Positions 6,065-44,996 of a DNA stretch of 44,996 nt are shown here, piece by piece (positions within the stretch are counted from its first letter, which is position 1; every line of letters starts with the position of its first letter). Origin of the DNA: a phage; sequence record PZ789432.1; one strand, given 5' to 3'. The translations under genes and the position numbers were made by a program. The notes under the pieces are model-generated. The model searched no databases. It saw only the letters and a list, made by a program, of their open reading frames with translations, and had not been told where the DNA came from.

Positions 6065-6073
6065 TATTAATAG

Positions 6074-6153: not shown

Positions 6154-6156
6154 CTT

Positions 6157-6336: not shown

Positions 6337-6341
6337 TTCGT

Positions 6342-6364
6342 ATTTACCGGACAATATAGATAAG
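6342..6364 (+). promoter_or_regulatory. phage RNAP promoter variant (atttaccggacaatatagataag)
   Basis: One core mismatch (C to A); second of two tandem promoters upstream of the gene 1.1-like ORF, as phi1.1A/phi1.1B in T7. Confidence 0.55.
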
Positions 6365-6389
6365 ACTAACTTACTTTGGAGATTTAACC

Positions 6390-6518: not shown

Positions 6519-6521
6519 GTT

Positions 6522-6740
6522 ATGGCTAAATACAGAATCAAGACCTGTTTAAATAGTCACGGGCAAGAATTCTACGTAGTGCAACGTAAAGTATTAGGCT
6601 TAATATGGCTCACTTGTATGATGCCTATTGGCTATACTGATACAGAGGCTATCTTCTGCACCGAAAGGGATGCAAAGAAGTTTATCTCTAAGCGTAGAAA
6701 AGCTGACTCTTACCAACCTAGAATTATTAAGGTGAACTAA
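6522..6740 (+). CDS. hypothetical protein (72 aa)
   Basis: ORF track; between gene 1.1-like and primase-helicase. Confidence 0.55.
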   Translation: MAKYRIKTCLNSHGQEFYVVQRKVLGLIWLTCMMPIGYTDTEAIFCTERDAKKFISKRRKADSYQPRIIKVN

Positions 6741-25336: not shown

Positions 25337-26074
25337 ATGCCTGTAATTAAACAAACCAGTAAAGTAGGACACATGATGGAAGATGTGGCCTTCCAGATTA
25401 TTGATAGCAAGCTTGAAGCGGTCAACTTGTGTATGCGAGCTATTGGTCGTGAGGGTGTGGATTCTCTCGACTCAGGCGATCTTGATGCAGAAGATGCAAG
25501 TAAGATGATTGATATTGTATCCCAGCGCTTCCAGTATAACAAAGGCGGTGGCTGGTGGTTCAATCGTGAACCTAACTGGCAGCTTGCACCAGACACGAAC
25601 GGTGAGATTAACTTGCCTAATAACTGCCTAGCTGTATTGCAGTGCTACGCATTGGGTGAGAAGAAAGTGCCTATGACTATGCGTGCAGGTAAGCTTTACT
25701 CCACATGGAGTCACACCTTTGATATGCGCAAGCATGTTAATGCTAATGGCATGATTCGTCTTACCTTACTCACCTTACTACCCTACGAGCATCTACCTAC
25801 AAGTGTAATGCAGGCTATTGCCTATCAAGCTGCTGTAGAGTTTATTGTGTCTAAGGATGCAGATCAGACTAAGCTAGCCACTGCGCAGCAGATAGCCACT
25901 CAGCTTCTTATGGATGTACAATCTGAGCAAATGTCACAGAAGCGATTAAACATGCTGGTACATAACCCCACTCAGCGTCAGTTTGGTATCATGGCTGGTG
26001 GCTCTCAGAATGTACCTGCTTACTCTCATTCACCTTATGAAAGTTGGGCGCTCCGTCCGTGGGAGGATCGTTAA
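25337..26074 (+). CDS. tail tubular protein A (T7 gp11-like)
   Basis: ORF track 25322..26074; ATG 25337 after AGGAGGA; position and size. Confidence 0.75.
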   Translation: MPVIKQTSKVGHMMEDVAFQIIDSKLEAVNLCMRAIGREGVDSLDSGDLDAEDASKMIDIVSQRFQYNKGGGWWFNREPNWQLAPDTNGEINLPNNCLAVLQCYALGEKKVPMTMRAGKLYSTWSHTFDMRKHVNANGMIRLTLLTLLPYEHLPTSVMQAIAYQAAVEFIVSKDADQTKLATAQQIATQLLMDVQSEQMSQKRLNMLVHNPTQRQFGIMAGGSQNVPAYSHSPYESWALRPWEDR

Positions 26075-28476
26075 TGGAAGTACAAGGTTCATTAGGTAGA
26101 CAAATCCAAGGGATTAGCCAGCAGCCGCCAGCGGTACGCTTGGATGGTCAGTGCACAGCTATGGTTAATATGATACCTGATGTAGTGAATGGTACTCAAT
26201 CACGCATGGGTACAACTCATATTGCAAAGATACTTGATGCTGGGACTGATGACATGGCTATTCATCATTATCGCAGAGGTGATGGTGATGAAGAGTATTT
26301 CTTCACGTTGAAGAAAGGACAAGTTCCTGAGATATTTGATAAGTATGGGCGCAAATGTAATGTGACTTCACAAGATGCACCTATGACCTACCTCTCTGAG
26401 GTTGTTAATCCAAGGGAAGATGTACAATTCATGACGATAGCTGATGTTACTTTCATGCTTAATCGTAGGAAAGTAGTTAAAGCTAGTAACAGGAAGTCAC
26501 CTAAAGTTGGAAACAAAGCCATTGTGTTTTGTGCGTATGGTCAATATGGTACATCTTATTCCATTGTAATTAATGGGACCAACGCTGCTAGTTTTAAAAC
26601 ACCGGATGGTGGAAGTGCAGACCATGTTGAACAAATTCGAACTGAACGTATCACTTCTGAATTGTACTCTAAGTTGCAGCAATGGAGCGGTGTGAGTGAC
26701 TATGAAATACAAAGAGACGGTACTAGTATATTTATCGAGAGACGGGATGGTGCTAGCTTTACAATAACAACCACCGATGGTGCAAAAGGTAAGGACTTAG
26801 TGGCTATCAAGAATAAAGTTAGCTCTACTGACCTACTCCCTTCTCGTGCGCCTGCTGGTTATAAAGTACAAGTGTGGCCCACTGGCAGCAAACCTGAGTC
26901 TCGTTACTGGCTGCAAGCTGAGCCTAAAGAGGGAAACCTTGTGTCTTGGAAAGAAACAATAGCTGCTGATGTATTACTTGGGTTTGATAAAAGCACAATG
27001 CCTTACATTATTGAACGTACAGATATCATCAACGGCATAGCTCAATTCAAGATAAGACAAGGTGATTGGGAAGATCGTAAAGTAGGGGATGACTTGACTA
27101 ACCCTATGCCCTCTTTTATTGATGAGGAGGTACCACAGACAATAGGTGGAATGTTCATGGTGCAGAACCGCCTATGCTTTACAGCAGGTGAAGCGGTTAT
27201 TGCTTCTCGTACATCATACTTCTTCGATTTCTTTCGTTATACGGTTATCTCTGCATTGGCAACTGACCCATTTGATATTTTCTCAGATGCTAGTGAAGTC
27301 TACCAGCTAAAACATGCAGTGACCTTAGATGGCGCTACCGTGTTGTTCTCTGATAAGTCACAATTCATACTGCCAGGCGATAAGCCTTTAGAGAAGTCAA
27401 ATGCACTGCTTAAGCCTGTTACAACATTTGAAGTGAACAATAAAGTGAAGCCAGTAGTAACTGGTGAATCGGTAATGTTTGCCACTAATGATGGTTCTTA
27501 CTCTGGTGTACGAGAGTTCTATACCGACTCTTATAGTGACACTAAGAAGGCACAAGCAATCACAAGTCATGTGAATAAACTCATCGAAGGTAACATTACC
27601 AACATGGCAGCAAGCACCAATGTCAACAGGTTACTTGTCACTACCGATAAGTATCGTAACATAATCTACTGCTACGATTGGTTATGGCAAGGAACAGACC
27701 GTGTACAATCAGCATGGCATGTATGGAAGTGGCCTATAGGTACAAAGGTGCGAGGTATGTTTTATTCTGGTGAATTACTTTACCTGCTCCTTGAGCGAGG
27801 AGATGGCGTATATCTGGAGAGGGTGGACATGGGTGATGCACTAACCTACGGTTTGAATGACCGCATCAGAATGGATAGGCAAGCAGAGTTAGTCTTCAAG
27901 TATTTTAAAGCAGAAGATGAATGGGTATCTGAACCGCTCCCTTGGACTCCTACTAACCCAGAACTTTTAGATTGCATCTTAATCGAGGGTTGGGATTCAT
28001 ATATTGGTGGCTCTTTCTTATTCAAGTACAACCCTAGTGACAATACTTTGTCTACAACCTTTGATATGTATGATGACAGTCATGTAAAAGCGAAGGTTAT
28101 TGTTGGTCAGATTTACCCTCAAGAGTTTGAACCTACGCCTGTGGTTATCAGAGACAATCAAGACCGTGTATCCTACATTGATGTACCAGTTGTAGGATTG
28201 GTTCACCTTAATCTTGACATGTACCCCGATTTCTCCGTAGAAGTTAAGAATGTGAAGAGTGGTAAAGTACGTAGAGTGTTAGCGTCAAACCGTATAGGTG
28301 GTGCTCTCAATAATACAGTAGGCTATGTTGAACCGAGAGAAGGTGTCTTCAGATTTCCACTGAGAGCTAAGAGCACGGATGTTGTTTATCGTATTATTGT
28401 AGAGTCACCTCACACATTCCAGCTTCGTGATATTGAGTGGGAAGGGAGCTACAATCCAACCAAAAGGAGGGTCTAA
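26074..28476 (+). CDS. tail tubular protein B (T7 gp12-like)
   Basis: ORF track 26044..28476; ATG 26074 overlaps the upstream stop; GISQQPP motif as in T7 gp12 N-terminus. Confidence 0.85.
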   Translation: MEVQGSLGRQIQGISQQPPAVRLDGQCTAMVNMIPDVVNGTQSRMGTTHIAKILDAGTDDMAIHHYRRGDGDEEYFFTLKKGQVPEIFDKYGRKCNVTSQDAPMTYLSEVVNPREDVQFMTIADVTFMLNRRKVVKASNRKSPKVGNKAIVFCAYGQYGTSYSIVINGTNAASFKTPDGGSADHVEQIRTERITSELYSKLQQWSGVSDYEIQRDGTSIFIERRDGASFTITTTDGAKGKDLVAIKNKVSSTDLLPSRAPAGYKVQVWPTGSKPESRYWLQAEPKEGNLVSWKETIAADVLLGFDKSTMPYIIERTDIINGIAQFKIRQGDWEDRKVGDDLTNPMPSFIDEEVPQTIGGMFMVQNRLCFTAGEAVIASRTSYFFDFFRYTVISALATDPFDIFSDASEVYQLKHAVTLDGATVLFSDKSQFILPGDKPLEKSNALLKPVTTFEVNNKVKPVVTGESVMFATNDGSYSGVREFYTDSYSDTKKAQAITSHVNKLIEGNITNMAASTNVNRLLVTTDKYRNIIYCYDWLWQGTDRVQSAWHVWKWPIGTKVRGMFYSGELLYLLLERGDGVYLERVDMGDALTYGLNDRIRMDRQAELVFKYFKAEDEWVSEPLPWTPTNPELLDCILIEGWDSYIGGSFLFKYNPSDNTLSTTFDMYDDSHVKAKVIVGQIYPQEFEPTPVVIRDNQDRVSYIDVPVVGLVHLNLDMYPDFSVEVKNVKSGKVRRVLASNRIGGALNNTVGYVEPREGVFRFPLRAKSTDVVYRIIVESPHTFQLRDIEWEGSYNPTKRRV

Positions 28477-29198
28477 TGGCTATAGGTTCAGCCGTTATGG
28501 CTGGTATGTCTTCTATTGGTAGTATGTTTGCAGGCAGTGGTGCAGCAGCCGCTGCTGGAGGTGCTGCCGCAGGTGGCGGAGGCTTGCTAGGTTCTCTAGG
28601 TGGCTTCCTAAGCGGCTCTACTGCTGGCTTCTCTAATGCTGGGCTTCTTGGTGCTGGCCTTCAAGGTTTAGGCTTGATTGGTGATCTCTTTGGTGGAAGT
28701 GATGAAGCCAAGGCAATGAAGAAAGCACAAGAAGAACAGTGGCGGCAGCAACTTATTGCTACACAAGAAGCATACAAAACAGTAGCAGATGCAGAGCGTT
28801 CTGCTGCTAAACAATATCATGCAGATGCAATAAGCAATCAGGCTTCACTACTACAGCAGCGAGCACAGGTTGCATTACTAGCAGGTGCTACTGGTACTGG
28901 TGGTAACTCTGTAACTTCTATGCTGAATGACTTAGCAGCAGAGGGCGGGAGGAACCAGAGTACAATTATTGATAACTATGAGAATCAGAAGATTAACTTC
29001 ACCAATCAGCTTAAGTCTATCCAGCGAGGTGGACAGATGCAGATGCGTGAGTTTAAGAAGCCTTCTGCCGTGAGCACCTTGGTGCAAGGTATACCGAGTC
29101 TGGCATCTGCCTATGTAACAGGTAGTAAGTCCGGCATGGCTTTAGGTAAAGCTTTAACTGATTCTCGTACATATTCATCTGGAACAAGAGGTATTTAA
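28476..29198 (+). CDS. internal virion protein (Gly/Ala-rich)
   Basis: ORF track 28437..29198; ATG 28476 after AAGGAGG; Gly/Ala-rich N-terminal segment. Confidence 0.7.
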   Translation: MAIGSAVMAGMSSIGSMFAGSGAAAAAGGAAAGGGGLLGSLGGFLSGSTAGFSNAGLLGAGLQGLGLIGDLFGGSDEAKAMKKAQEEQWRQQLIATQEAYKTVADAERSAAKQYHADAISNQASLLQQRAQVALLAGATGTGGNSVTSMLNDLAAEGGRNQSTIIDNYENQKINFTNQLKSIQRGGQMQMREFKKPSAVSTLVQGIPSLASAYVTGSKSGMALGKALTDSRTYSSGTRGI

Positions 29199-32146
29199 TG
29201 GCAATTGAGCGACAAGCAGTACAAGGTCTGCCACAAGTGCAGGCCACTTCTCCTAATGTCATGACCTTTGCACCTCAGCGAGTTGGAGGTGTGGAGGCTG
29301 GCGTAGCTTCTACCTCCGGTAGTCGATTTATCGAAGACCTTATTCGAGCAGCCAGTAGTGTAGCTGATGTAACCACTGGTATCCTTAATCAAAAGATTGA
29401 GGAAGATAAGGTTGTTCAAATGGAACGGGCATATAACGGATTAATGCCTTCTGAGGATGCAACTCGTGGTGGCGCTCGTGCTAACATGCTTGTCAAAGCT
29501 CAACTGCTAGCTAATGATGAAGCAGCACGAATGAAAGACATGGCTACTCGTTTCCAAGGGACGGATGACGAGTGGACACAACTTATGGTTGACTCTCGTA
29601 ATGAGATGCAGAATAAGCTGTTCCAGCAATACCCTGAGTTGCAAGGTGACAAAGATACTATGCGTATGGTCACTAATGTCTTCCAAGAACAGCAGCCTCA
29701 GATTTGGGCGACACGAACCCAGCATAAACTTGACCGTGAACAAGCAGACCGTGAGGATACCTTTGACGGGCGAGTGGCTTCTACTTGGGATTCTAATATT
29801 GACCCTGAAGCATCTGGCTATGCTTTACAGGAACGAATCCGCGAAGGTCTTACTCAAGGATTACTACCTGAACAGATGCACAAGAAGTTAGTCCAGCGAG
29901 CAATTTCACTTGCACAAGGCGGTGATGTTAGCATGGCTGAAGCCCTGAAGTATGTGAAGGACGATAAGGGTGTTTCTGTTTATGCTAAGAATCCACAGCT
30001 TATCACAGCCATCACTAGTGGTAATGCAGTTTGGGCTAGGAATAATGTAGCTGATGTAACTCGTATGTCTTTCGAAGTTAAAGAATCATACCTTGCAGGT
30101 GATTTAACTGATGAAGAATTGTTGGAACGAGCACAGCACATTAATAATCTGACAGGTAACTATGTCTTCTCTAATCCAGAACTAGAGGCACTGATGCGCC
30201 AACGGGCTAAGCAGAATGCAGAGCTAGGTGCAATGCAGGATATGCGACGTGAGCTTTACTCCGACCGCCTGACTGGCTTCCAAGGTAAGACTGATAAAGA
30301 GAAGAAGGCTTACATTGATGTTATCAAACAGGATAGCCAACTTTATGCAGACCAGCAAATCAAACAACGTGGCTTGGACCCTTACAGTCAAGAGGCTGAA
30401 GCTATTCGTGGTGCAGTGGAAGTGCAGCGCCTGCAATTCATGAACTCCAAAGGCTTAGTGGATGATACCTTTGAGTCTCGTATCAAAGCCATGGAATCTA
30501 TGCTATCGCCTGAGCACTTTGCCAAGGGCGAACCACAGGAGTTGATGACTATTCGCCAGTTGTGGGAACAGTTGCCAGAAGAGAGCCGAGGTGTCTTTGG
30601 TGACACGGTTAATGGCTACATGGATAACTACAACACTGCACTACAAATGGGAGAGACACCTTTGCAGGCTGCAAGGTTTGCGCGTGAAGCACAGCAGAAA
30701 TTCTCTCGTACTGAGAAGGAAACCAAGAAGTTCAACTCAGCTATTGGAGATGCACTGGATGAGGTATCTGGTGCTGGCTGGTTTGATGGTAAAACCGAAG
30801 TGTCAGACTTAGGTAAAGCTATTGCGGAAGAAGAGTTACGAGCTAAGGCCAATATGTTGTGGTCTAGTGGTATGCGTAACATGGATTCTATCAAGAAGGC
30901 TTTAATTACTTGGGGCAATAAACGCTACACTCAAACAGAGGATGCAAAGACTTCCGGTGGCTATTTCATTAAAGGTGATTACACTTCTGCATCTGATATG
31001 CTTATGTCAGTTGGGAAAGGCGTAAACCCTACCGATGTACCTCTGGCGCTTGGTAGGTATGTAGAAACACAGATGCCAGAATTGAAGAAGGAGCTTCAAG
31101 AGTGGGAAACTAAAGATGATATATACATTGATTACAATGAACAGAAAGGTACTTTCGTGATTCGTGCTGGTGCAGCAGGTCGCCCTCTTTCTGGAGTAAT
31201 CCCTGTAACCTCTTTAGATACCACTTCACTACTAGATTCTGCCTATCAGAAGAAAGTAGAGGAACGAGATAAAGGCGAGTATGTTCACCCTTATCGTACA
31301 GATATTGGTGCACAAGAGCCTATGCCAGCTAAACCCACTGCCAAAGATATTGGTAAATTTGGACTAGCTAACTTCCTCATGTCTTCTGCTTTTGCTTCTG
31401 GTGAGAATCTGCCTTCTAACTTCGAGATTAACTATCGAGGTAATATGCAACAATTCTATGACAAGCTAGCTATGGATGAGAATAAAGATAAAGTTGGCTT
31501 TAATAAGGCAACTGGAACCTTTACTCCATATAAAGATGCTCACGGTGAGTCTATCGGTTACGGTCATTTCTTAACGGAAGAAGAGAAGCGAAACGGGTAT
31601 ATTAAGATTGGTGATGAACTAGTTCCCTATCGAGGGTCTATGTCTCAGCTTACAGAGAGCAAGGCTCGCGCTCTTATGGAGCAAGATGCCAAGAAGCATG
31701 TGCCTCCTACTCGTGACTGGAAGATTCCGTTTGACCAGATGCATCCTGCACAGCAACGTGGCTTGATGGATTTAACCTACAATTTAGGTAAAGGTGGAAT
31801 CCAGAACTCACCGCGTGCTCTTGCTGCATTCAAAGCTGGTAAGCTTACGGAAGGCTTTATCGAAATGCTGGGCACTGCATCAAGTGAAGGTAAACGTATT
31901 CCGGGCCTACTGAAGCGACGCGCTGAGGCATACAATATGGCAGCTGCTGGTGGTGTACCTAAGATCACAGAAGTGGAGACGAGGGAAGATGGCTCTATGT
32001 GGGTTAAGTTTGGTGGACCTATGCCAGCAGGCTCTATTTCTGCGTGGACGCATAAACGTATTGGAGCCGATGGCTGGTATCAGGTTTATGAGGCTGCACC
32101 TACCAAGTTAGCTAAAGACTCTAAGGTAGGTAAAGTTAAATTGTAG
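29198..32146 (+). CDS. internal virion protein with C-terminal lysozyme-like domain
   Basis: 982 aa; C-terminal region (~31400..31950) ...GESIGYGHFLTEEEK...LMDLTYNLGKGG... resembles T4-lysozyme-type muramidases. Confidence 0.75.
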   Translation: MAIERQAVQGLPQVQATSPNVMTFAPQRVGGVEAGVASTSGSRFIEDLIRAASSVADVTTGILNQKIEEDKVVQMERAYNGLMPSEDATRGGARANMLVKAQLLANDEAARMKDMATRFQGTDDEWTQLMVDSRNEMQNKLFQQYPELQGDKDTMRMVTNVFQEQQPQIWATRTQHKLDREQADREDTFDGRVASTWDSNIDPEASGYALQERIREGLTQGLLPEQMHKKLVQRAISLAQGGDVSMAEALKYVKDDKGVSVYAKNPQLITAITSGNAVWARNNVADVTRMSFEVKESYLAGDLTDEELLERAQHINNLTGNYVFSNPELEALMRQRAKQNAELGAMQDMRRELYSDRLTGFQGKTDKEKKAYIDVIKQDSQLYADQQIKQRGLDPYSQEAEAIRGAVEVQRLQFMNSKGLVDDTFESRIKAMESMLSPEHFAKGEPQELMTIRQLWEQLPEESRGVFGDTVNGYMDNYNTALQMGETPLQAARFAREAQQKFSRTEKETKKFNSAIGDALDEVSGAGWFDGKTEVSDLGKAIAEEELRAKANMLWSSGMRNMDSIKKALITWGNKRYTQTEDAKTSGGYFIKGDYTSASDMLMSVGKGVNPTDVPLALGRYVETQMPELKKELQEWETKDDIYIDYNEQKGTFVIRAGAAGRPLSGVIPVTSLDTTSLLDSAYQKKVEERDKGEYVHPYRTDIGAQEPMPAKPTAKDIGKFGLANFLMSSAFASGENLPSNFEINYRGNMQQFYDKLAMDENKDKVGFNKATGTFTPYKDAHGESIGYGHFLTEEEKRNGYIKIGDELVPYRGSMSQLTESKARALMEQDAKKHVPPTRDWKIPFDQMHPAQQRGLMDLTYNLGKGGIQNSPRALAAFKAGKLTEGFIEMLGTASSEGKRIPGLLKRRAEAYNMAAAGGVPKITEVETREDGSMWVKFGGPMPAGSISAWTHKRIGADGWYQVYEAAPTKLAKDSKVGKVKL

Positions 32147-32163: not shown

Positions 32164-32179
32164 GTCTCACATGTGAGAC
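32164..32179. repeat. 16-bp perfect palindrome GTCTCACATGTGAGAC in a terminator-like context
   Basis: Extended stem cttgtctcaca/tgtgagacagg followed by tcttt. Confidence 0.8.
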
Positions 32180-32210: not shown

Positions 32211-35200
32211 ATGGAACAAGATATTAAGACTAATTGGGCTGGATATGTCCAGTCTACTCCTGAGCCGTTTTCTATTGAGGCGGCTCCGGTATCGGCTCCT
32301 ACGATACGCCAGCGTAATGAGTTACAAGAGCAAGTTCTTGAAGCTAAAGCGGATGCTGATATCTTAGGTGCTGTAGGTGCTGCCTTCCAGAATGAGTGGT
32401 TGGCATTCGGAGGCAAGCGGTGGTATGACCGTGCCACTGCTGATTTCACACCTCAACCAGACTTCGAGATACAACCTGAGCAACGTGAAGCACTACGTTT
32501 CAAATATGGTACAGATATGATGCAGACAATCACTGAGGGTGTTCGTTCTGAGGATGAATTGAACTTCCGTATTCAGAATGCTGATGAAGACCTTGAGCGC
32601 AATAAGCGCATTGCTCAGGCTGGCTGGGTTGGCTCTGTGGCGACGATTGGCGCTGCTGTGCTTGACCCTGTGGGATGGGTTGCCTCTATTCCAACCGGTG
32701 GTGCCGCTAAAGTTGGACTCGTAGGCCGTGCTGTGCGTGGCGCTATCGCCGCTGGCGTAAGTAATGCCGCTATTGAATCCATATTGGTCCAAGGTGACAT
32801 GACTCGTGATTTAGATGACATTATGGTAGCACTAGGCTCCGGTATGGCTATGGGTGGCGTTATTGGAGCTGTAGCGCGTGGTAGGGCCACTAAGCTCAGT
32901 GAGCAAGGAGATGACAGGGCTGCGAGCATTGTGCGCAGTGCAGACGCAGGGGACCGCTATGTGCGTGCTGTTGCTGATGATAGTATCGGTGCGATGCGTG
33001 TTAAGGGTGAAGAGGTACTCACTGAGGGTGCATTTGATATCTCTAGCAAAGGTGAAGATTTGCTGAAAACCCTACAGCGGGAAGGTAATGCAATTGATAT
33101 GACCCCTCGCCGCTGGGCCGGAACTCTGTCTGCCCTTGGGACTGTCGTGCACTCCTCTCATGATACTAGTGTTCGTGGCCTCGGTGCTCGCCTGTTTGAG
33201 TCTCCGCAAGGTTTAGGTATGCAAAAGGCATCTGCCAGTCTTATGCAGAATACCAACTTGAATCGACTGAAGTCTGCTGATATGAACCGTTTCAATGACG
33301 GGTTTGACTTATGGCTCAAAGAAAATAATATCAATCCAGTTGCAGGCCATACTAACTCTCACTATGTGCAGCAATATAATGAGAAGGTATGGGAAGCTGT
33401 ACGCATCGGTATGGATGAGTCTACGCCTAAGTCTATCCGCATGGCAGCAGAGGGGCAGCAAGCTATGTACCGTGAAGCCTTAGCTTTAAGGAAGCGCTCC
33501 GGTGAAGCTGGCTTTGAAAACATTAAAGCAGATAATAAGTATATGCCTGATATCTTTGACACTATGAAAGCTCGCCGTCAATTTGATAGGATAGGAAAGG
33601 ATATAGATAAAGAAGATATCATTGAGTTATTCTCTCGTGCTTATCAGAACGGCGCTCGTAAAATTCCAAAAGAAGTAGCGGATGAAATTGCACGAGCACA
33701 AGTAAACCGCGTTGCTGGATGCCACCTTGACCGGACAGCTATGAGCTTTGAAAAGGCTATGTCTGGTCAAACCAAAGCAGAATATGAAGCACTAATGCGC
33801 AAAGCAGGCTTTAGTGATGAAGAGATTGAAAAGATGGTAGAAGCTCTGGATAATAAAGAAACCAGAGATAATATCTCTAACCGAGCTAAGATGAGTTTAG
33901 GCTTAGATGTCACTCAAGAGTACAATGGCATTCGTATGCGTGACTTTATGAACACTAACGTGGAAGAGTTAACAGATAACTACATGAAGGAAGCGGCAGG
34001 TGGTGCTGCCTTGGCTCGTCAAGGTTTCTCTACCTATCAGGCTGCACTTAATGCAATTGATCTTGTAGAGCGAAATGCACGAAATGCAGCTAAAGATACA
34101 AAAGCACACGCACAATTTGAAGCGGAGTCGGCTAAGATCCGTCAATCAGAGCCTGATTACAAGAGGGCACAAGAGAAGATTGAAGAGTTAAAGAAGCGAC
34201 TTAAATTGAAAGAGAAAGATGAAGCAGCTGGTCTGGCTATTGATGAAGAAATCCGTCAGATGCGAGAAGGGCTTCGCTTGATTATGGGTAAATCTATCGA
34301 TTCAAACCCACAAGATTTGTCTACTAAAATGCTGCGTCGTGGGCGTGACATTACAGGTGTACTTCGCTTAGGTCAGATGGGCTTCGCACAGCTAGGTGAA
34401 CTTGCTAACTTCATGGGTGAGTTTGGTATTGCTGCCACCACTATGGCTTTAGGTAAGCAATTCCGCTTCACCTCTAAGGCGTTGCGTAATGGCGATGGCT
34501 TCTTTCGAGATAAGAATTTAGCTGAGGTTGAGCGAATGGTAGGTTACATTGGTGAAGACAACTGGCTAACAACTAAGGGTGCGCGTCCAGATGAGTTTGG
34601 TGATGTAACCACAGTGCGAGGGATGATGGCCCATTTTGACCAGTCCATGAACTCTATACGACGTGCTCAGACAAACCTATCCCTCTTCCGCATGGCACAG
34701 GGTTCTCTGGAGCGAATGACCAATAGGCAAATAGCTTTGTCTTTCATTGACCATCTTGAAGGCAAGAAGATTATTCCTCAGAAGAAACTGGAGGAACTTG
34801 GTCTTACTCAGGAGTTCATGACTAACCTACAGAAGCACTATGATGCTAACTCTAAAGGCTCTGGCTTGCTTGGCTTTGATACAATGCCTTATGCCATGGG
34901 TGAAACTTTAGCTAATGCTATTCGTCGTAAGTCAGGTCTAATTATCCAACGTAACTTCATTGGTGATGAAGGTATCTGGATGAACAAAGCACTAGGTAAG
35001 ACATTTGCACAGCTTAAGTCATTCTCTCTTGTATCTGGTGAGAAGCAATTTGGTCGAGGGATTCGCCACGATAAAATTGGTCTTGCTAAGAAGACAGCTT
35101 ATGGTTTTGCTTTGGGTTCAATAGTGTATGCGGCAAAAGCCTATGTGAACTCTATTGGTCGAGAAGACCAAGATGAATATTTGGAAGAGAAGTTATCGCC

Positions 35201-35534
35201 TAAAGGGTTGGCCTTTGGTGCAATGGGTATGATGAGTACAACTGCTGTATTTAGTCTAGGTGGAGATTTCTTAGGTGGCCTAGGTGTTCTACCTTCTGAG
35301 TTAGTACAATCCCGTTATGAGGCTGGCTTTCAGACTAAGGGTTTGATAGACCAAATACCACTAGTAGGTGTTGGTCAAGATGCATATCGTTTAGCAGATT
35401 CTATAACTAAATACGCAGAGGGCGATACAGAAGGTGTAGATGTGGCACGTAGGGCTTTACGCTTAGTGCCTCTAGCTAATGTAATAGGAATCCAGAACGC
35501 ATTGCGTTATGGCTTAGATGAACTGGAGGATTAA
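32211..35534 (+). CDS. large internal virion (core) protein, T7 gp16-like by position
   Basis: 1107 aa; SD GGAGG; last of three internal proteins between tail tube and tail adaptor genes. Confidence 0.75.
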   Translation: MEQDIKTNWAGYVQSTPEPFSIEAAPVSAPTIRQRNELQEQVLEAKADADILGAVGAAFQNEWLAFGGKRWYDRATADFTPQPDFEIQPEQREALRFKYGTDMMQTITEGVRSEDELNFRIQNADEDLERNKRIAQAGWVGSVATIGAAVLDPVGWVASIPTGGAAKVGLVGRAVRGAIAAGVSNAAIESILVQGDMTRDLDDIMVALGSGMAMGGVIGAVARGRATKLSEQGDDRAASIVRSADAGDRYVRAVADDSIGAMRVKGEEVLTEGAFDISSKGEDLLKTLQREGNAIDMTPRRWAGTLSALGTVVHSSHDTSVRGLGARLFESPQGLGMQKASASLMQNTNLNRLKSADMNRFNDGFDLWLKENNINPVAGHTNSHYVQQYNEKVWEAVRIGMDESTPKSIRMAAEGQQAMYREALALRKRSGEAGFENIKADNKYMPDIFDTMKARRQFDRIGKDIDKEDIIELFSRAYQNGARKIPKEVADEIARAQVNRVAGCHLDRTAMSFEKAMSGQTKAEYEALMRKAGFSDEEIEKMVEALDNKETRDNISNRAKMSLGLDVTQEYNGIRMRDFMNTNVEELTDNYMKEAAGGAALARQGFSTYQAALNAIDLVERNARNAAKDTKAHAQFEAESAKIRQSEPDYKRAQEKIEELKKRLKLKEKDEAAGLAIDEEIRQMREGLRLIMGKSIDSNPQDLSTKMLRRGRDITGVLRLGQMGFAQLGELANFMGEFGIAATTMALGKQFRFTSKALRNGDGFFRDKNLAEVERMVGYIGEDNWLTTKGARPDEFGDVTTVRGMMAHFDQSMNSIRRAQTNLSLFRMAQGSLERMTNRQIALSFIDHLEGKKIIPQKKLEELGLTQEFMTNLQKHYDANSKGSGLLGFDTMPYAMGETLANAIRRKSGLIIQRNFIGDEGIWMNKALGKTFAQLKSFSLVSGEKQFGRGIRHDKIGLAKKTAYGFALGSIVYAAKAYVNSIGREDQDEYLEEKLSPKGLAFGAMGMMSTTAVFSLGGDFLGGLGVLPSELVQSRYEAGFQTKGLIDQIPLVGVGQDAYRLADSITKYAEGDTEGVDVARRALRLVPLANVIGIQNALRYGLDELED

Positions 35535-36497
35535 TGAGTTATACTTTCACAGAACATATAGCCAACGGTACGCAAGTAACCTATCCCTTTAGCTTTGCTG
35601 GTAGGGATAAAGGTTATCTTCGTGCCTCAGATGTGATAGTGGAGATCTCTTCAAGGTAACACTTGGATTGAGGTTACATCTGGCTGGCAACTAACTGGCA
35701 CGCACCAGATTACTTTTGATGTAGCACCAGTTGCAGGTTTGAAGTTCCGTATTCGAAGGGAAGTACAAAAGGAGTATCCATACGCTGAGTTTGACCGTGG
35801 TGTTACCTTGGATATGAAGTCTTTAAATGGTTCTTTCATTCATATACTGGAGATTACACAGGAGTTACTTGACGGGTTTTATCCAGAAGGATACTTCATT
35901 AAACAGAATGTAAGCTGGGGCGGCAATAAGATTACTGATTTGGCTGATGGCACAAATCCGGGAGATGCAGTAAACAAAGGGCAGCTTGATGCCATTGACA
36001 AGAAGCATACAGATTGGAATGCCAAACAGGACATTGAGATTGCTGGCCTTAAGGCTGGTATGACTTCTGGTATTGCGCACAGAACTGTTCCTTGGTACAC
36101 GATAGCCCAAGGTGGTGAGATTTCCGTAAAACCACCTTATGAATTTCAAGATGCACTAGTTTTCCTTAATGGGGTATTGCAGCACCAAATTGTAGGCGCA
36201 TACTCTATAAGCAACAACACTATCACTTTCGCAGAGTCGCTTGTGGCGGGTACAGAGGTGTATGTGCTGATTGGTAGTCGTGTGGCTACATCTGAACCTA
36301 ATATTCAGTTAGAGTTGAACTTTGACTTAGTAGAAGGCCAACAAGTAGTACAGATTGGCTCTGCATTTAAGTACATTGAGGTCTACCTTGATGGATTATT
36401 ACAACCTAAACTTGCTTATCAGGTAGACGGTGACATTGTTACTTTCTCAGAGGGAGTGCCAGAATGCCGGATGACTGCTAAGATTATCACAGCATAA
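35534..36497 (+). CDS. tail fiber/tailspike adaptor (T7 gp17 N-terminal-domain-like); frame-disrupted
   Basis: ATG 35534 gives MSYTFTEHIANGTQVTYPFSFAGRDKGYLRASDVIVEISSR* (ends 35659). Homology continues in another frame from ~35640 (NTWIEVTSGWQLTG...; ORF track 35739..36497). One indel near 35648..35656 restores ~321 aa. Confidence 0.7.
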
Positions 36498-39334: not shown

Positions 39335-39628
39335 ATGGCTAAATATGGTACTAAAGGTTCTGTTACGGGTCAGGCTTTTCGAGTGAAAGCAGTACAAACT
39401 ATTGCAACGGCAATCCCGATGCCTGTTGTTAAAGAAGTAGACCTTAAGAGTAAAGATCACCCTATCAACATCAAACATTTATCAGGTAAACAGAAAGGTG
39501 CAATGGTTGCTCTTGAGAAAAGTGACACAACCTTACATATTGCTGTTGCACGTGGTAGTGAACCAACAGACCCTTGGGATGTAACTGGCATGGACTCGCT
39601 CGCTGTCACTCCAGCAGGTGGAGAATAA
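39335..39628 (+). CDS. hypothetical protein (97 aa), paralog B of a tandem pair
   Basis: ORF track; SD AAGGAGG; LSGKQKGAMVALEKSDTTLHIAVARG parallels KSGKQKGAMVCLEVEGGVLKIAIAVDG upstream. Confidence 0.7.
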   Translation: MAKYGTKGSVTGQAFRVKAVQTIATAIPMPVVKEVDLKSKDHPINIKHLSGKQKGAMVALEKSDTTLHIAVARGSEPTDPWDVTGMDSLAVTPAGGE

Positions 39629-39985
39629 TGCTTAACAAATACTTCAAGCGCCGTGAGTTCGCTTGCCGTTGTGGGTGCGGTACATCCACTGTTGATGCTG
39701 AATTACTACAGGTAGTCACAGATGTGCGTGAGCACTTTGGTTCGTACCTGTAGTAATCACTTCGGGGCATCGCTGTGCTAAGCACAATGCCAACGTAGGA
39801 GGAGCTAAGAAGGTTCCATGCATCTTACTGGTAAGGCTGCTGACATTAAGGTATCTAGGTGTCTGGTACCAATCGGAGGTACGTACAGTACCTCTGCTAA
39901 TAAATACCCTGATAAGTATGGCATTGGTGCTTATACCTACTTTTACCCATATCGACGTTACGAGACAACGAGTGCACGATGGTAA
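39628..39985 (+). pseudogene. endolysin, zinc peptidase M15-type, with about four frame disruptions in this sequence
   Basis: Successive frames give MLNKYFKRREFACRCGCG...VREHFGS / PVVITSGHRCAKHNANVGGAKK / SMHLTGKAADIKV...GIGAYTY / FTHIDV / ...SARW*, together the M15 hallmark. Each break is at a short G or T run. Confidence 0.75.
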
Positions 39986-40094
39986 GATGTGTTGAATGGT
40001 GTGAACGCATGGTTGCCAAAGCATCCAGAGGATGGCAACTATGATGACTGGAAGAACTACTCTGAATTGTTAGCTCAATGGAAAGGGAGATGCA

Positions 40095-40190
40095 ATGAAA
40101 AAGCTGTTTAAGTCTAAGAAGGTTGTAGGTGCACTGGTTGCACTGGTTATTGCACTTGTTTCTGTAGGTCTTGGCGTAGACCTTGGCTGA
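40095..40190 (+). CDS. hypothetical small membrane protein (31 aa)
   Basis: ATG 40095 after AAGGGAG; MKKLFKSKKVVGALVALVIALVSVGLGVDLG. Confidence 0.35.
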   Translation: MKKLFKSKKVVGALVALVIALVSVGLGVDLG

Positions 40191-40324
40191 AGGTACGGAA
40201 GGTTCCTGTCACTGACGTGGTCTGCCAAGTGATCACCTGTGAATAAGGTGCTTGAAGTGGTGGCAGGTCTTATTGGCCTGCTGCTTGCCGCTAAGAAGAA
40301 GCAAGGAAGAAAAGGAGGCACAAA

Positions 40325-40426
40325 GTGAAGCGAATCATGCTAGCGACAATCCTGCTGATTGGTTCGCTGACCACTTCCGGGTGTCAGACAGGCGTTACCA
40401 GAGAGTCCAATGGTGAAACCGTCTGA
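40325..40426 (+). CDS. small lipoprotein-like ORF (candidate o-spanin-like)
   Basis: GTG 40325 six nt after AGGAGG (or ATG 40337); MLATILLIGSLTTSGCQTG has a signal peptide with lipobox-like TSGC. No intact i-spanin ORF is visible. Confidence 0.35.
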   Translation: MKRIMLATILLIGSLTTSGCQTGVTRESNGETV

Positions 40427-40564
40427 AGCCGACGCTGACGGCAGTTTACGAGGTAGACGATAAGGTCTGCTTCAGTAAGCCTGACGCTACAAAATTAGGT
40501 TTGTATATTCTTTCGCTAGAACGCGGATATAATTAATACATAGCTTTATGTATCAGTGTCTTAC

Positions 40565-40667: not shown

Positions 40668-41792
40668 ATGGCTAAATTAACCAAACCTAAGACTGAAGGA
40701 ATCTTGCATAAAGGACAATCTTTGTATGAGTACCTTGATGCGAGAGTTTTAACATCAAAGCCGTTTGGTGCTGCAGGTGACGCCACTACTGATGATACGG
40801 AGGTTATAGCTGCTTCACTAAACTCTCAAAAAGCTGTCACAGTCTCAGATGGTGTATTCTCTAGCTCTGGTATTAATAGTAATTACTGTAACTTAGACGG
40901 CAGGGGTAGTGGAGTACTAAGTCACCGTTCAAGTACAGGTAACTACTTAGTATTTAACAATCTACGTGCAGGTCGCTTAAGTAATATTACGGTAGAAAGT
41001 AATAAGGCGACTGATACAACTCGGGGACAGCAGGTATCTCTTGCTGGTGGAAGTGATGTTACTGTAAGTGACGTTAACTTCTCAAACGTTAAAGGTACTG
41101 GTTTCAGTTTAATAGCATACCCTAATGGTGCGCCACCTAATGGGCTTATGATTAAAGGTATTCGAGGTAGCTACTCCGGCTATGCTACTAATAAGGCAGC
41201 CGGATGCGTACTTGCTGACTCCTCAGTTAACTCCCTAATAGATAACGTCATTGCTAAGAACTACCCTCAGTTCGGAGCCGTAGAGTTGAAAGGTACAGCC
41301 AGTTATAACATAGTCAGTAATGTTATAGGGACAGATTGCCAGCATGTAACTTACAACGGCACTGAAGGGCCAATAGCTCCTTCTAATAACCTTATCAAGG
41401 GTGTGATGGCTAATAACCCTAAGTATGCAGCGGTTGTTGCAGGCAAAGGAAGTACGAACTTAATCTCAGACGTGCTCGTAGATTACTCAACTTCTGATGC
41501 TAGGCAGGCTCATGGTGTTACCGTAGAGGGGTCTGATACCGTCATAAATAATGTGCTTATGTCAGGATGTGATGGTACTAACTCTTTAGGACAAAGTCAG
41601 ACTGCTACAATTGCGCGCTTTATAGGTACAGCTAATAACAACTATGCGTCTGTATTTCCTAGCTACAGTGCTACAGGTGTTATTACTTTCGAATCCGGCT
41701 CTACCCGTAACTTCGTAGAGGTAAAGCACCCTGGCAGGAGAAATGACCTTCTCAGTTCTGCTAGTACTATTGACAGGTGCAGCTACTATTGA
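40668..41792 (+). CDS. tailspike 1 (beta-helix polysaccharide depolymerase, K5-lyase-like), N-terminal fragment; frame-disrupted
   Basis: ORF track 40608..41792 (TTG); ATG 40668 after AGGAG; beta-helix-like repeats; frame lost near 41775. Confidence 0.8.
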   Translation: MAKLTKPKTEGILHKGQSLYEYLDARVLTSKPFGAAGDATTDDTEVIAASLNSQKAVTVSDGVFSSSGINSNYCNLDGRGSGVLSHRSSTGNYLVFNNLRAGRLSNITVESNKATDTTRGQQVSLAGGSDVTVSDVNFSNVKGTGFSLIAYPNGAPPNGLMIKGIRGSYSGYATNKAAGCVLADSSVNSLIDNVIAKNYPQFGAVELKGTASYNIVSNVIGTDCQHVTYNGTEGPIAPSNNLIKGVMANNPKYAAVVAGKGSTNLISDVLVDYSTSDARQAHGVTVEGSDTVINNVLMSGCDGTNSLGQSQTATIARFIGTANNNYASVFPSYSATGVITFESGSTRNFVEVKHPGRRNDLLSSASTIDRCSYY

Positions 41793-42567
41793 TGGCACTA
41801 ATAATAGTAACGTAGTGCACGCACCTGCCTTAGGGCAGTACATCGGTAGTATGTCAGGTAGGTTCGAATGGCGGATTAAGTCCATGTCACTCCCTTCAGG
41901 CGTTCTTACTTCTGCTGATAAGTACAGAATGCTTGGGGATGGTGCTGTGTCATTAGCTGTAGGTGGGGGCACTTCTTCTCAAGTTCGCCTATTTACTTCT
42001 GATGGTACTTCTCGGACAGTGTCCCTCACCAACGGTAACGTGCGTCTTTCTACCAGTAGCGCAGGCTATTTGCAGTTAGGTGCTGATGCAATGACCCCAG
42101 ATAGTACTGGTACATACGCATTAGGTTCCGCCAGTCGAGCATGGTCTGGCGGTTTTACTCAAGCAGCATTCACTGTTACCTCAGATGCTCGGTGTAAAAC
42201 AGAACCTCTTACTATCTCAGATGCCTTACTGGATGCTTGGTCTGAAGTTGACTTTGTGCAGTTTCAGTATTTGGATCGTGTTGAGGAGAAAGGTGCAGAC
42301 TCAGCTAGATGGCACTTTGGCATCATCGCTCAGCGAGCTAAGGAGGCTTTCGAACGTCACGGTATAGATGCACATCGCTACGGCTTCTTGTGCTTCGACA
42401 GTTGGGAGGATGTATACGAGGAAGATGCAAATGGCTCTCGTAAACTGATTACACCAGCAGGTTCCCGCTATGGTATTCGTTACGAGGAAGTACTGATATT
42501 AGAGGCTGCGTTGATGCGGCGGACTATTAAGCGTATGCAGGAAGCACTAGTTGCCATTCCTAAGTAA
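41743..42567 (+). CDS. tailspike 1, C-terminal fragment with intramolecular chaperone (peptidase S74-like) domain; frame-disrupted
   Basis: C-terminus ...DARCKTEPLTISDALLDAWSEVDFVQFQYLD...ARWHFGIIAQ...YGFLCFD... parallels the autocleaving chaperone domain of K1F endosialidase (...GERKTEPVVFDDAFLDAWGDV...ARIHFGVIAQ...YAVLCYD). Joined length ~633 aa. Confidence 0.8.
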   Translation: MTFSVLLVLLTGAATIDGTNNSNVVHAPALGQYIGSMSGRFEWRIKSMSLPSGVLTSADKYRMLGDGAVSLAVGGGTSSQVRLFTSDGTSRTVSLTNGNVRLSTSSAGYLQLGADAMTPDSTGTYALGSASRAWSGGFTQAAFTVTSDARCKTEPLTISDALLDAWSEVDFVQFQYLDRVEEKGADSARWHFGIIAQRAKEAFERHGIDAHRYGFLCFDSWEDVYEEDANGSRKLITPAGSRYGIRYEEVLILEAALMRRTIKRMQEALVAIPK

Positions 42568-42652: not shown

Positions 42653-44365
42653 ATGCTTCAAAGATTAAGTGCTTACTTGGTGAAGTACAAGAGTAAACTA
42701 ACAGGTACTATTGAGCGCCTGCTATCTGATAAACTATCGGATACAATAGACGTTGCGGATTTTGGAGTTAATCCCTCTTCTAATGACAACAGGCAAGCCC
42801 TTCAAGCTGCATTCAATGCGGTCAGATTGCTAGGCGGTGGTACTGTATCAGTCACTAAAGCTGGCGAATATAAACTCAGTGGTACTGTTGAGATATTTGC
42901 TAATACACACTTCAAGGTTGCTAAAGGTGTAACATTTGTACGTGACTACGAAACAGGAGATACGCTATTCAGATTATCACAAGGGCAAGCTAGTAATGTA
43001 ACAGTCAGTGGAGGTATCTATGAAGGCAATGGTCACACTAAGGGAGATACACCTTTTGTAGTATTTGCATCTACTAGTAATAATGATTTGAAGTTTGAAG
43101 GCATAACAGTTAACAATGTAGTGGACTACCACGCCATAGATTTAGCAGATTGGAACAACGTAGTTATTCGTGATTGTAAATTCCTAGGGTTTAAGAATAC
43201 AGGCAGTCGTAACTTCTCAGAGGCTATACAGTTAGACCCAGGTCTTATTACAGTTGGTCACTATGTACAGTCAAGCGGTATGCTGGTGGAGAATTGCTAT
43301 GCTGGTCCAAACCCAGAATCAGGGTTTGGGGGTTATGGTGCACTAATCGGAAATCACGCCTCAGCTTATGGTGTACAGGACAACAATATCCGTATCTTGA
43401 ATTGCACTACAGATGGTGCTCTCTTTGCAGGTGTACGTGTATTTAACTGGAAAAACTGGACAGTACGTGGTTGTACCTTTAGAAACTCTAATGCAAGAGG
43501 TGTTCATGTTACACCTGTCTCCTCTCAAACTAAACCGCAAGGAACTCGACAAGGTAGTGTTGTAGATTGTACTTTTGATGGCGTAAGAACACCAGTGCTA
43601 ATTGCTGCACCATCTTGGCCTTTTACAGATATTAGTGACATTTGGCATGACCATATTGAAATTTCTAATAATACTATGATCCTCACAGAGGATGTATCCT
43701 ATGGTGTAGATGCAAGGTGGTGTAAGAATTTAATTGTAAAAGGTAACACTGGTTCTGGCGGCTTAGGGTTAATCGGTTTACGCTTTGGAACAAAGTACCA
43801 CATCGAAGGTAATACTTGGGAAAACGGAAGAGGTAGTGGGATTTGGTTAGGTGAGTCTGATGCTACTACATTCATTGGTACTGGCTTATCTGGAGAAGGT
43901 ATACTTAGTCGTAATATCCTCTCTAAATTAGGGCAATATGGTATTCATGTAAACTGCAAGGCTGGCGGTCTAGTGATTAAAGCTAATAATATGAAGGAAG
44001 TATCTACAGCTGAAGCAGGTAGGCACTTCATTAGCATAGACACAGGAGCTAACAACATCCTAGTAGAAGGTAATATTGGAGTAGATGGAGAAAGCCCTAA
44101 CAAGCCAAGCTTGGGTATTCGTGTTACTTCTTCTTGTTCCAATATTAAACTCATTGGCAATGATTGCTATGGTACACAGGCGCCTCAGAATAACCAAGGG
44201 GTTGGTTCTAGTACGGTGATTGTTTATGGACTAAATGGCAATCCTACAACTTTAGGCGTAGGTGCACCTGTTGGCTCTTTAGCAACTGATATCAATGGGT
44301 CTGGTGGTAGTACATTGTACGTTAAAGAATCTGGTACATCTGCTCAAGGTTGGGTTGCAAAGTAG
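42653..44365 (+). CDS. tailspike 2 (pectate-lyase-fold beta-helix depolymerase)
   Basis: 570 aa; SD AAGGAGG; N-terminal DVADFGVNPSSNDNRQALQAAFNA...GGGTV typical of pectate-lyase-type tailspikes, followed by beta-helix-like repeats. Confidence 0.85.
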   Translation: MLQRLSAYLVKYKSKLTGTIERLLSDKLSDTIDVADFGVNPSSNDNRQALQAAFNAVRLLGGGTVSVTKAGEYKLSGTVEIFANTHFKVAKGVTFVRDYETGDTLFRLSQGQASNVTVSGGIYEGNGHTKGDTPFVVFASTSNNDLKFEGITVNNVVDYHAIDLADWNNVVIRDCKFLGFKNTGSRNFSEAIQLDPGLITVGHYVQSSGMLVENCYAGPNPESGFGGYGALIGNHASAYGVQDNNIRILNCTTDGALFAGVRVFNWKNWTVRGCTFRNSNARGVHVTPVSSQTKPQGTRQGSVVDCTFDGVRTPVLIAAPSWPFTDISDIWHDHIEISNNTMILTEDVSYGVDARWCKNLIVKGNTGSGGLGLIGLRFGTKYHIEGNTWENGRGSGIWLGESDATTFIGTGLSGEGILSRNILSKLGQYGIHVNCKAGGLVIKANNMKEVSTAEAGRHFISIDTGANNILVEGNIGVDGESPNKPSLGIRVTSSCSNIKLIGNDCYGTQAPQNNQGVGSSTVIVYGLNGNPTTLGVGAPVGSLATDINGSGGSTLYVKESGTSAQGWVAK

Positions 44366-44741: not shown

Positions 44742-44996
44742 GCCCTCGCCGGGTTGCCCCCATATGGGGTAGATCGGCGGTTGACCTAGGAATTGGGCTG
44801 GGCTGGTCCGTCTTCGACGGGTGGGCGAGGGCTTGCCGAGGTCTGCTCTTAGTGGCTGCACAAGGAGAACGCCTAGGAAGCGCTAGGGCACGCCTTAGTA
44901 TTGGACAAGGTGATTGCCTTAGTGAAGCCTCTTAGTGCATTCCTTAGGTCATTCAGGGCGTTTATGAGGGATTGACAGGGTGGATGGGTGTGGGCT
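44742..44996. repeat. right direct terminal repeat
   Basis: Same orientation copy of 1..257; preceded by extra ctcgccctcgccctcgcc units that the truncated left copy does not show. Confidence 0.85.

Follow-up and report, generated by a model that had tools for sequence, protein, structure and literature searches.

The window, by which we mean the whole stretch of 44,996 nucleotides that was analysed (PZ789432.1), is an E. coli phage genome of the K1-5-like type. The gene of interest is an open reading frame at 29198..32146, the presence of which was confirmed, and its product is referred to below as the gp35-type protein. The features in and around it are listed here in order of position.

26074..28476, + strand, nozzle / tail tubular protein B gene (Pfam PF25675 Phage_nozzle, E 1.8e-177)
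28476..29198, + strand, gp14-like internal virion protein gene (Pfam PF24072 T7_gp14, E 1.7e-32; PHROG 805)
29198..32146, + strand, gp35-type ejection protein gene (982 aa)
29372..31270, + strand, mostly helical body with a fold like the T7 gp15 core / periplasmic tunnel (aa 59-691)
31271..31432, + strand, linker joining the helical body to the lysozyme domain (aa 692-745)
31433..31942, + strand, predicted GH24 / T4-lysozyme-like muramidase domain (aa 746-915 by secondary structure)
31478..31480, + strand, codon of E761, the predicted catalytic glutamate (equivalent of T4 lysozyme, T4L, Glu11)
31523..31927, + strand, envelope of the Pfam PF00959 Phage_lysozyme match (aa 776-910)
31535..31552, + strand, D780 to S785 in the beta-hairpin PYKDAHGESIGYGH (equivalents of T4L Asp20 and Thr26 in the HMMER alignment to T4L)
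31964..32143, + strand, beta-rich module of about 60 aa after the lysozyme fold (aa 923-982)
32211..35534, + strand, gp16-like internal virion protein gene (1107 aa; PHROG 342)
39628..39985, + strand, M15-peptidase endolysin gene, split over three reading frames by small insertions

The gp35-type gene is flanked directly by the gp14-like gene upstream and the gp16-like gene downstream. The stop codon of the gp14-like gene and the ATG of the gp35-type gene share bases (TAATG), and the sequence AAGAGG is found 8 nt upstream of the latter. The VEc3 annotation, together with the ATG at 26074, gave the inferred start of the nozzle gene, and that of the gp14-like gene was set by alignment with K1-5 gp34. 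The order nozzle, gp14-like, gp35-type, gp16-like is common to VEc3, K1-5 and SP6. PHROG 4290 matches the product of 29198..32146 over its full length (1515 bits), and the gene is, judged by its sequence, the orthologue of K1-5/K1E gp35 and SP6 gp36. A scan for the SP6-type promoter consensus gave just two sites with one mismatch, both distant from the gp35-type gene, and it was uninformative, as many sites being obtained in 1 out of 100 shuffles.

The helical body is preceded by a short region (residues 1-58) that is predicted to be disordered. The full-length AF2 model of the protein has a mean pLDDT of 77.7, and its best four PDB matches in Foldseek are all T7 core entries, i.e. 6ysz_A (gp15), 6yt5_A (gp15-gp16 complex), 9jyy_G and 7eyb_A (titled 'core proteins'), with E-values of 5.7e-8 to 6e-3, probability 1.0 and a target-normalised TM-score of 0.58 for 6ysz_A. 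The global TM-scores to T7 gp15 are low (0.24-0.58, target-normalised), which limits the structural claim, although low values are to be expected of a protein that refolds between states. The likeness to T7 gp15 was found by the full-length fold search alone; sequence-level PDB searches, with the single sequence or with a profile, gave no match to it. The position of the gene and the long helical body with T7 gp15 fold similarity mark the product as a gp15-type protein. The linker that follows the body is probably flexible, as the pLDDT of the full-length model falls below 50 at aa 693-708 and 731-733.

An earlier note on this DNA had described a T4-lysozyme-like domain at 31400..31950, embedded in the 982-aa open reading frame, and this description is borne out. 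Both motifs that it quoted are present, GESIGYGHFLTEEEK at aa 783-797 (nt 31544..31588) and LMDLTYNLGKGG at aa 856-867 (nt 31763..31798); the extent was nearly exact, the fold spanning nt 31433..31942, and the word embedded is fair as the beta-rich module follows the lysozyme domain. The search against Pfam Phage_lysozyme/GH24 that the note had proposed gives a significant match to PF00959 (E 2.2e-10; 41.4 bits, the gathering cut-off being 22.3), which places the domain in the GH24 family. A profile of 23 homologues matches solved GH24 lysozymes in the PDB with E-values of 6.9e-13 to 1e-7. The AF2 model of aa 721-982 (pLDDT 93.2, pTM 0.87) has the two-lobed alpha+beta architecture of lysozymes, as predicted folds go: Foldseek pairs it with phage 21 R21, T4L and other GH24 structures at probability 1.0, and the target-normalised TM-scores to 3hde, 9kbq, 6et6 and T4L are 0.55-0.73.

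The homologues used for the conservation analysis came from an exhaustive representative search, on which the alignments were built; a word-indexed search with the C-terminal 262 aa had returned three fragments only. The lysozyme domain is kept across Molineuxvirinae genera, in phages of E. coli, Salmonella, Klebsiella, Proteus, Erwinia and Pectobacterium. In the AF2 models the predicted catalytic glutamate, E761, forms part of the C-terminal end of helix 746-762. It is invariant in all 23 full-length homologues and aligns with T4L E11 and with the corresponding Glu of P22. Residues G789, H790 and D830 are likewise invariant in the 23 homologues and align with T4L G30, H31 and D70. The hairpin is less uniform: 18 out of 23 homologues have Thr or Ser at position 785, and position 780, which is Asp in the window protein, is Ser in 15 out of 23, with an acidic residue adjacent. 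In T4L, Asp20 and Thr26 belong to the inverting hydrolase mechanism; a second catalytic carboxylate at the Asp20-equivalent position of the window protein is uncertain because that position is Ser in most homologues.

It is useful to compare the domain with the T4 lysozymes themselves. The GH24 fold of the window protein is also that of gpe, the T4 lysozyme, and of the corresponding domain of T4 gp5; the equivalents of Glu11, Gly30-His31 and Asp70 are kept in the window protein, although identity is only about 18-20%. The window domain differs from T4L by two insertions, one of about 10 residues, forming a beta-hairpin, that lies after the catalytic Glu and before the first conserved strand, and another after the GYGH strand. 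The settings differ as well, since gp5 belongs to the baseplate spike and gpe is an endolysin free in the cytoplasm, whereas the window protein is of the capsid-internal ejection type.

The closest known relative is gp35 of K1-5 (YP_654136.1, 'lysozyme domain-containing protein' in RefSeq). It also has 982 aa, lies at the same position between gp14-like and gp16-like genes, and is 99.0% identical to the window protein with no gaps. The ten substitutions include four in aa 721-982 (T860S, A916S, K937R, I947V) and none at the conserved catalytic positions, so on sequence grounds the two can be regarded as in effect the same protein. K1E gp35 is 98.5% identical over the C-terminal 262 aa. SP6 gp36 (NP_853596.1) is more distant, with 42% identity over the full length, and it comes from a phage of another genus (Zindervirus) and another host; still, it has a Pfam lysozyme domain (aa 770-905), the C-terminal beta module and the identical gene order. 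In phiKMV gp36 and Ar-KM gp42, as in the window protein, a GH24 domain comes after a gp15-like body, near the C-terminus. The search also recovered homologues of 895-954 aa in which the same ENxxxxG...GYGH motifs occur and the lysozyme domain ends the protein; they are about 25-35% identical to the window lysozyme domain, lack the beta module and, from their length and layout, would be of the phiKMV type. The protein of the phiKMV-like phage LKA1 (854 aa) matches the lysozyme model weakly (E 0.04).

Several of these relatives have been characterised. A review (PMC5380687), with Moak and Molineux 2004 as its source, counts K1-5 gp35, SP6 gp36 and phiKMV gp36 among the virion-associated lysozymes, and it reports that SP6 gp36 is an internal protein of the head and has lysozyme activity. 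The activity of phiKMV gp36C has been demonstrated biochemically (PMC5380687), and for K1E/K1-5 gp35 both homology to gp15-like proteins and lysozyme activity are described (PMC8954989). Cryo-EM has resolved, in a phiKMV-like phage, a periplasmic-tunnel protein that carries the lysozyme at its C-terminal end; there Ar-KM gp42 is the tunnel protein with a C-terminal T4-lysozyme-like domain, its position in the core stack being seen directly, and this layout is reported for 31 out of the 127 Autographivirales genomes in which the ejectosome has a lysozyme or transglycosylase domain (bioRxiv 10.64898/2026.05.18.726046). A lysozyme domain on a gp35 ejection protein is thus already known, because the 99.0% identical K1-5 protein is listed as a virion-associated lysozyme and the layout has been resolved by cryo-EM; the feature is real but ordinary.

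In its ejectosome role the arrangement resembles that of T7, where gp15 and gp16 likewise provide a tunnel protein plus a murein-cleaving module at the height of the cell wall. The module itself is different: in T7 the N-terminus of gp16 carries a lytic transglycosylase with catalytic E37, and in the window it is the gp15-type protein that carries a module, a GH24 domain (PMC8954989; bioRxiv 10.64898/2026.05.18.726046). The gp16-like protein of the window agrees with this division. Its PHROG 342 match begins at profile position 162 of 1235, it appears from this alignment to be without the N-terminal transglycosylase domain of T7 gp16, and a Pfam scan detected no muralytic domain in it. SP6 gp37, the gp16-like partner in SP6, is longer (1270 aa against 1107 aa in the window phage) and is named 'internal virion protein with endolysin domain', a label taken from the PHROG family. 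Pfam scans of the first ~977-979 residues of SP6 gp37 and of Era103 gp42 found no muralytic domain in either, and the idea that the gp16-like partner or SP6 gp37 carries a muralytic domain of its own was rejected on these scans. In this phage group the muralytic module is on the gp15-type protein, as opposed to the N-terminus of the gp16-type protein in T7. The locus is a clean example of how a murein-cutting module moves between the ejection proteins of T7-like phages, which is carried by gp16 in T7 but by the gp15-type protein in the phiKMV and SP6/K1-5 groups.

We consider it very probable that the segment is the peptidoglycan-cutting domain of a gp15-type ejection protein of the K1-5/K1E gp35 and SP6 gp36 type. 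The earlier note had likewise proposed an ejected internal virion protein that opens the cell wall, and this proposal is supported by the gene order, the T7 gp15-like body, the GH24 domain, the identity to K1-5 gp35 and the reviews. The analysis itself shows the lysozyme domain and its fold, a gp15-like body, the conserved key residues and the arrangement of the genes. Muralytic activity of the window protein would be expected from the literature on orthologous virion proteins, and presence in the virion core and ejection from the K1E/K1-5/SP6 literature together with the cryo-EM work on a phiKMV-like phage. On the analogy of T7 and phiKMV-like phages, the gp35-type protein would be stored in the capsid's internal core and, at infection, would leave through the tail after the gp14-like protein. 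The helical body would then form, with the gp16-like protein, a tunnel that spans the periplasm, while the lysozyme domain of T4 type, tethered by the linker, would hydrolyse the murein locally so that the tunnel could reach the inner membrane, with E761 presumably acting as the general acid. We infer the order of ejection and the site at which the lysozyme domain would act from the same analogy.

Two other explanations have to be weighed against this reading. The domain might be a catalytically inactive remnant that serves as a structural or murein-binding spacer, placing the tunnel at the cell wall. Such a role could account for the lack of conservation at the T4L Asp20-equivalent and for the ~10 extra residues, compared with T4L, that separate the catalytic Glu from the beta-hairpin. 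However, E761 is invariant and position 785 is mostly Thr or Ser; the K1-5 and SP6 orthologues and the C-terminal domain of phiKMV gp36 are reported active (PMC5380687), and homologues of the phiKMV type are described there with the Ser variant and are still active. We therefore regard an inactive domain as extremely improbable. The other explanation concerns the end of infection, when newly made, unassembled gp35 might reach the murein through holin lesions and contribute to lysis or replace a defective M15 endolysin. The earlier note had suggested such a backup of the damaged endolysin, and it is true that the endolysin open reading frame reads as broken in the window. Moreover, T7 gp16 compensates once the T7 endolysin is inactivated, and one SP6 muralytic gene has been described as serving two functions, a dual role that was once proposed (PMC2680503).

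The nature of the breakage speaks against this backup. Within 39744..40421 (~680 nt) the window has 19 inserted bases and 0 deletions relative to K1-5, and once these bases are taken out an intact endolysin of 114 aa is obtained (88.7% identical to the K1-5 endolysin), while the holin-like gene (96%) and the spanin (93%) are restored as well. Single-base insertions also split the tailspike adaptor and a tailspike. The frameshifts in the endolysin and tail genes are likely to be sequencing error, as far as the letters can tell, because there are insertions only and because like insertions break two tail genes; this is the simpler explanation, and the notion that the M15 endolysin is a true pseudogene was rejected. 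For annotators it means that the frameshifts of the lysis and tail genes look like sequencing errors here and not like biology. An independent read of the endolysin region was sought in public assemblies, and the exact gp35 sequence had no match in them. In the related annotated genomes that were examined, VEc3 and K1-5, genes for an M15 endolysin, a holin and a spanin are present, and in other relatives an endolysin is annotated at the same place. The gp35-type protein itself does not look like a canonical endolysin: its gene lies in the structural operon, about 7.5 kb upstream of the lysis genes (M15 endolysin, holin-like, spanin; 39628..40533), its product is a multidomain protein of 982 aa and not a small soluble or signal/SAR enzyme, and no hydrophobic, signal or SAR-like segment was detected in it (maximum Kyte-Doolittle mean over 19 residues 0.98). 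In wild-type T7, lysis is little affected by the loss of gp16 muralytic activity (PMC2680503). A backup role is not required by anything in the window and is not supported; we hold it to be very unlikely, and the delivery role of the domain is preferred.

The beta-rich module at the C-terminus distinguishes the window protein from the shorter homologues in which the lysozyme domain ends the protein, and its conservation extends over the SP6-like clade and to some short lysozyme proteins. With E-values as high as 10 allowed, Pfam gave no match to the window sequence of this module; its homologues drew nothing beyond weak, scattered matches. The PDB profile matches, which are designed beta-propeller repeats with a per-domain E of about 500, were set aside as spurious. 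We speculate that the module is a functional add-on of the SP6/K1-5 lineage or, with still less weight, that the gp35 lysozyme aids lysis at the end of infection, although both suggestions must be seen as rather unlikely. As an add-on, the module could, for example, bind murein, gate the activity of the lysozyme domain, or provide a docking site for the gp16-like partner.

The open reading frame at 29198..32146 (plus strand) encodes gp35, a 982-aa protein, and the lysozyme-like domain that the earlier note had recognized in it was confirmed by Pfam, by a PDB profile search and by AlphaFold2 modelling combined with Foldseek. The domain search proposed in that note gave a match to PF00959 (Phage_lysozyme, GH24) at aa 776-910 (nt 31523..31927) with 41.4 bits and E 2.2e-10, the curated Pfam cut-off being 22.3 bits, and the two motifs it had quoted are found at aa 783-797 and 856-867. 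PHROG 4290, "lysozyme domain-containing protein", matched over the entire protein. As a single sequence, gp35 retrieved only T4 lysozyme (T4L) variants from the PDB, and these weakly (E 5.6e-4); a profile made from 23 full-length homologues retrieved the prophage muramidase 6et6 (E 6.9e-13) and T4L (about 1e-8). The AlphaFold2 model of aa 721-982, built from an alignment of 36 sequences, is confident (pLDDT 93.2, pTM 0.87), and Foldseek matched it to phage 21 R21, PHAb10/11, 6et6 and T4L with probability 1.0 and target-normalised TM values of 0.55-0.73. It also resembles viral models annotated as lysozymes, e.g. a 953-aa protein of Erwinia phage vB_EamP-S2 (query-normalised TM 0.86). By secondary structure the fold covers aa 746-915 (nt 31433..31942), so the previously proposed limits of 31400-31950 were accurate. 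The lysozyme assignment is far beyond chance.

The full-length model (mean pLDDT 77.7) consists of four parts:
aa 1-58, disordered N-terminus
aa 59-691, long, mostly helical body
aa 692-745, linker with low-confidence stretches
the lysozyme domain and, after it, a small beta module (aa 923-982)

Its best four PDB matches are all entries of the T7 core, 9jyy_G, 6yt5_A, 7eyb_A and 6ysz_A (E 5.7e-8 to 6e-3, probability 1.0; TMt 0.58 for 6ysz_A). According to the PDB titles 6ysz is gp15 and 6yt5 the gp15-gp16 complex, while 9jyy and 7eyb are called only "core proteins"; we infer that the 9jyy_G and 7eyb_A chains are gp15. The SP6-like clade and some lysozyme proteins of 330-420 aa have conserved the beta module that follows the lysozyme fold (about 60 aa, nt 31964..32143); it is missing from shorter, phiKMV-type homologues that end with the lysozyme domain. 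It had no match in Pfam and none by sequence in the PDB.

Among the 23 full-length homologues E761, G789, H790 and D830 are invariant, and N762, G767, N862, G864 and R908 nearly so. HMMER pairs D780 with Asp20 of T4L, S785 with Thr26, G789-H790 with Gly30-His31 and D830 with Asp70; His31 and Asp70 form a salt bridge in T4 lysozyme. E761 lies at the C-terminal end of helix 746-762, the same place as Glu11 of T4L, and in the multiple alignment it shares a column with Glu11 and the corresponding Glu of P22 lysozyme. In contrast to T4L, gp35 has about 10 extra residues after this Glu and before the first conserved strand, which the model shows as an additional small hairpin, and another hairpin past the GYGH strand. 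The identity of the second catalytic carboxylate is uncertain, since residue 780, Asp in gp35, is Ser in 15 of the 23 homologues and has acidic neighbours. The domain may act as a hydrolase or as a lytic transglycosylase, either being compatible with the sequence.

The domain as such is already known: K1-5 gp35 (YP_654136.1; 28049..30997 of NC_008152.1) is 99.0% identical to the present protein without gaps, reviews and a cryo-EM study describe relatives, and the domain occurs in orthologues across Molineuxvirinae genera infecting Escherichia, Salmonella, Klebsiella, Proteus, Lelliottia, Pectobacterium and Erwinia. RefSeq names such proteins "lysozyme domain-containing protein". SP6 gp36 is 42% identical to gp35; this protein (107 kDa) and YP_654136.1 (109 kDa) are listed as virion-associated lysozymes by Latka et al. 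2017 (PMC5380687), who credit Moak and Molineux 2004 for both. phiKMV Gp36 is on the same list; its C-terminal domain has been characterised as a thermostable lysozyme (PMC5380687). Swanson and colleagues (2022, PMC8954989) place lysozyme activity on gp15-like proteins in K1E and K1-5, as opposed to gp16 in T7. In a phiKMV-like phage, cryo-EM resolved a T4-lysozyme-like domain on the gp15-like protein, and 31 of 127 Autographivirales genomes having an ejectosome muralytic domain show the layout "C-terminus of the periplasmic tunnel protein" (2026 preprint, bioRxiv 10.64898/2026.05.18.726046). The enzymatic activity of gp35 is predicted from this literature on orthologues.

The genes around gp35 are as follows:
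upstream, nozzle gene (PF25675)
upstream, gp14-like gene (PF24072, E 1.7e-32)
32211..35534, downstream, gp16-like gene (PHROG 342)

The start codon of gp35 overlaps the gp14-like stop (TAATG) and is preceded by AAGAGG, which suggests translational coupling. Since the gp16-like protein has no muralytic domain by Pfam and matches the PHROG 342 profile from position 162 onward only, gp35 with its lysozyme is the only one of the ejection proteins in which a murein-cleaving module can be recognised. Homology to characterised proteins supports the earlier view of an ejected protein that opens the cell wall at DNA delivery. The domain, fold, conserved residues, gp15-like body and gene order come from the present analysis, and we infer the ejection order and site of action from the analogy to T7 and phiKMV-like phages. 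In this view gp35 would be held in the capsid core, leave it following the gp14-like protein and form a trans-periplasmic tunnel with the gp16-like protein, where the tethered lysozyme would digest murein locally and give the tunnel access to the inner membrane.

The window is the complete linear genome (44,996 bases) of a K1-5/K1E-like podovirus (genus Vectrevirus, Molineuxvirinae), with a perfect direct terminal repeat of 251 nt (1..251 and 44742..44992); the terminal redundancy of this linear T7-supergroup genome is contained in it. The gp35 gene matched 65 phage records at 80-99% nucleotide identity, mostly Escherichia phages and Vectrevirus, and the genes of the window are collinear with those of VEc3 and K1-5. 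There are two tailspike genes:
40668..42567, first tailspike, K5-lyase-type, 97-98% identical to K1-5 gp46 (K5 lyase)
42653..44365, second tailspike, 570 aa, right-handed beta-helix protein (PF13229)

At the nucleotide level the second does not match the gene for the K1-5 endosialidase. The probable targets of the phage are K5 and a different polysaccharide, not K1.

It was also proposed that gp35 could back up a damaged M15 endolysin. In the sequence as given this frame is indeed broken, with K1-5 endolysin residues 1-39, 40-60 and 60-114 lying in three different frames, but the insertion pattern suggests a sequencing artefact. Compared with K1-5, 17 insertion events have added 19 bases to 39744..40421, where no base is deleted, and alignment with VEc3 gives a similar run of insertions in the window. 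The genes affected by insertions are:
39628..39985, M15 endolysin, broken
40095..40243, holin-like gene, broken
40334..40533, spanin, broken
35534..36497, tailspike adaptor, split by a lone single-base insertion at 35645

The first tailspike is likewise split by a lone base at 41775. With the inserted bases taken out, an endolysin of 114 aa (88.7% identity to K1-5), a holin-like gene (96%, one internal stop remaining due to a substitution) and a spanin (93%) are restored. Tailspikes are described as attaching to the adaptor (PMC5380687), and we therefore take adaptor and first tailspike as needed for infection. Judged by flanking bases the insertions are not simple homopolymer extensions. As there are only insertions, removal restores frames 89-96% identical to K1-5, and tail genes are split too, sequencing errors are likelier than gene decay. 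An exact-sequence look-up with gp35 found no independent copy of the genome in public assemblies.

A backup role has precedents: in T7 with inactive gp3.5 amidase, gp16 becomes nearly essential for lysis and evolves to restore fast lysis, and SP6 was once described as having one muralytic gene serving both jobs (PMC2680503). However, the gp35 gene sits in the structural operon, no hydrophobic export segment was found in the protein, and the annotated relatives examined have a dedicated endolysin. The proposal is not supported, and the damage itself is probably artefactual.

A few minor points concern the gp16-like gene and its surroundings. In databases "internal virion protein with endolysin domain" is the name for gp16-like proteins of this group, SP6 gp37 (3856..6786 of its locus L002) among them, and it appears to derive from the PHROG 342 label; when the first ~977-979 residues of SP6 gp37 and of Era103 gp42 were scanned, Pfam found no muralytic domain. 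Relative to K1-5, the gene has a 12-nt insertion, ATAGGAAAGGAT, at 33591 beside similar sequence, and +1/+2 insertions at 33717 and 33740 that shift the frame for about 7 codons; the differences in 33591..33740 are either local variation or further sequence error. A perfect 16-nt palindrome, GTCTCACATGTGAGAC (32164..32179), lies 18 nt past the gp35 stop and ahead of the gp36 (gp16-like) ribosome-binding site. Its stem might be extended with flanking bases. The palindrome is not followed by a T-run and may therefore act in RNA processing or stability, not as an intrinsic terminator.
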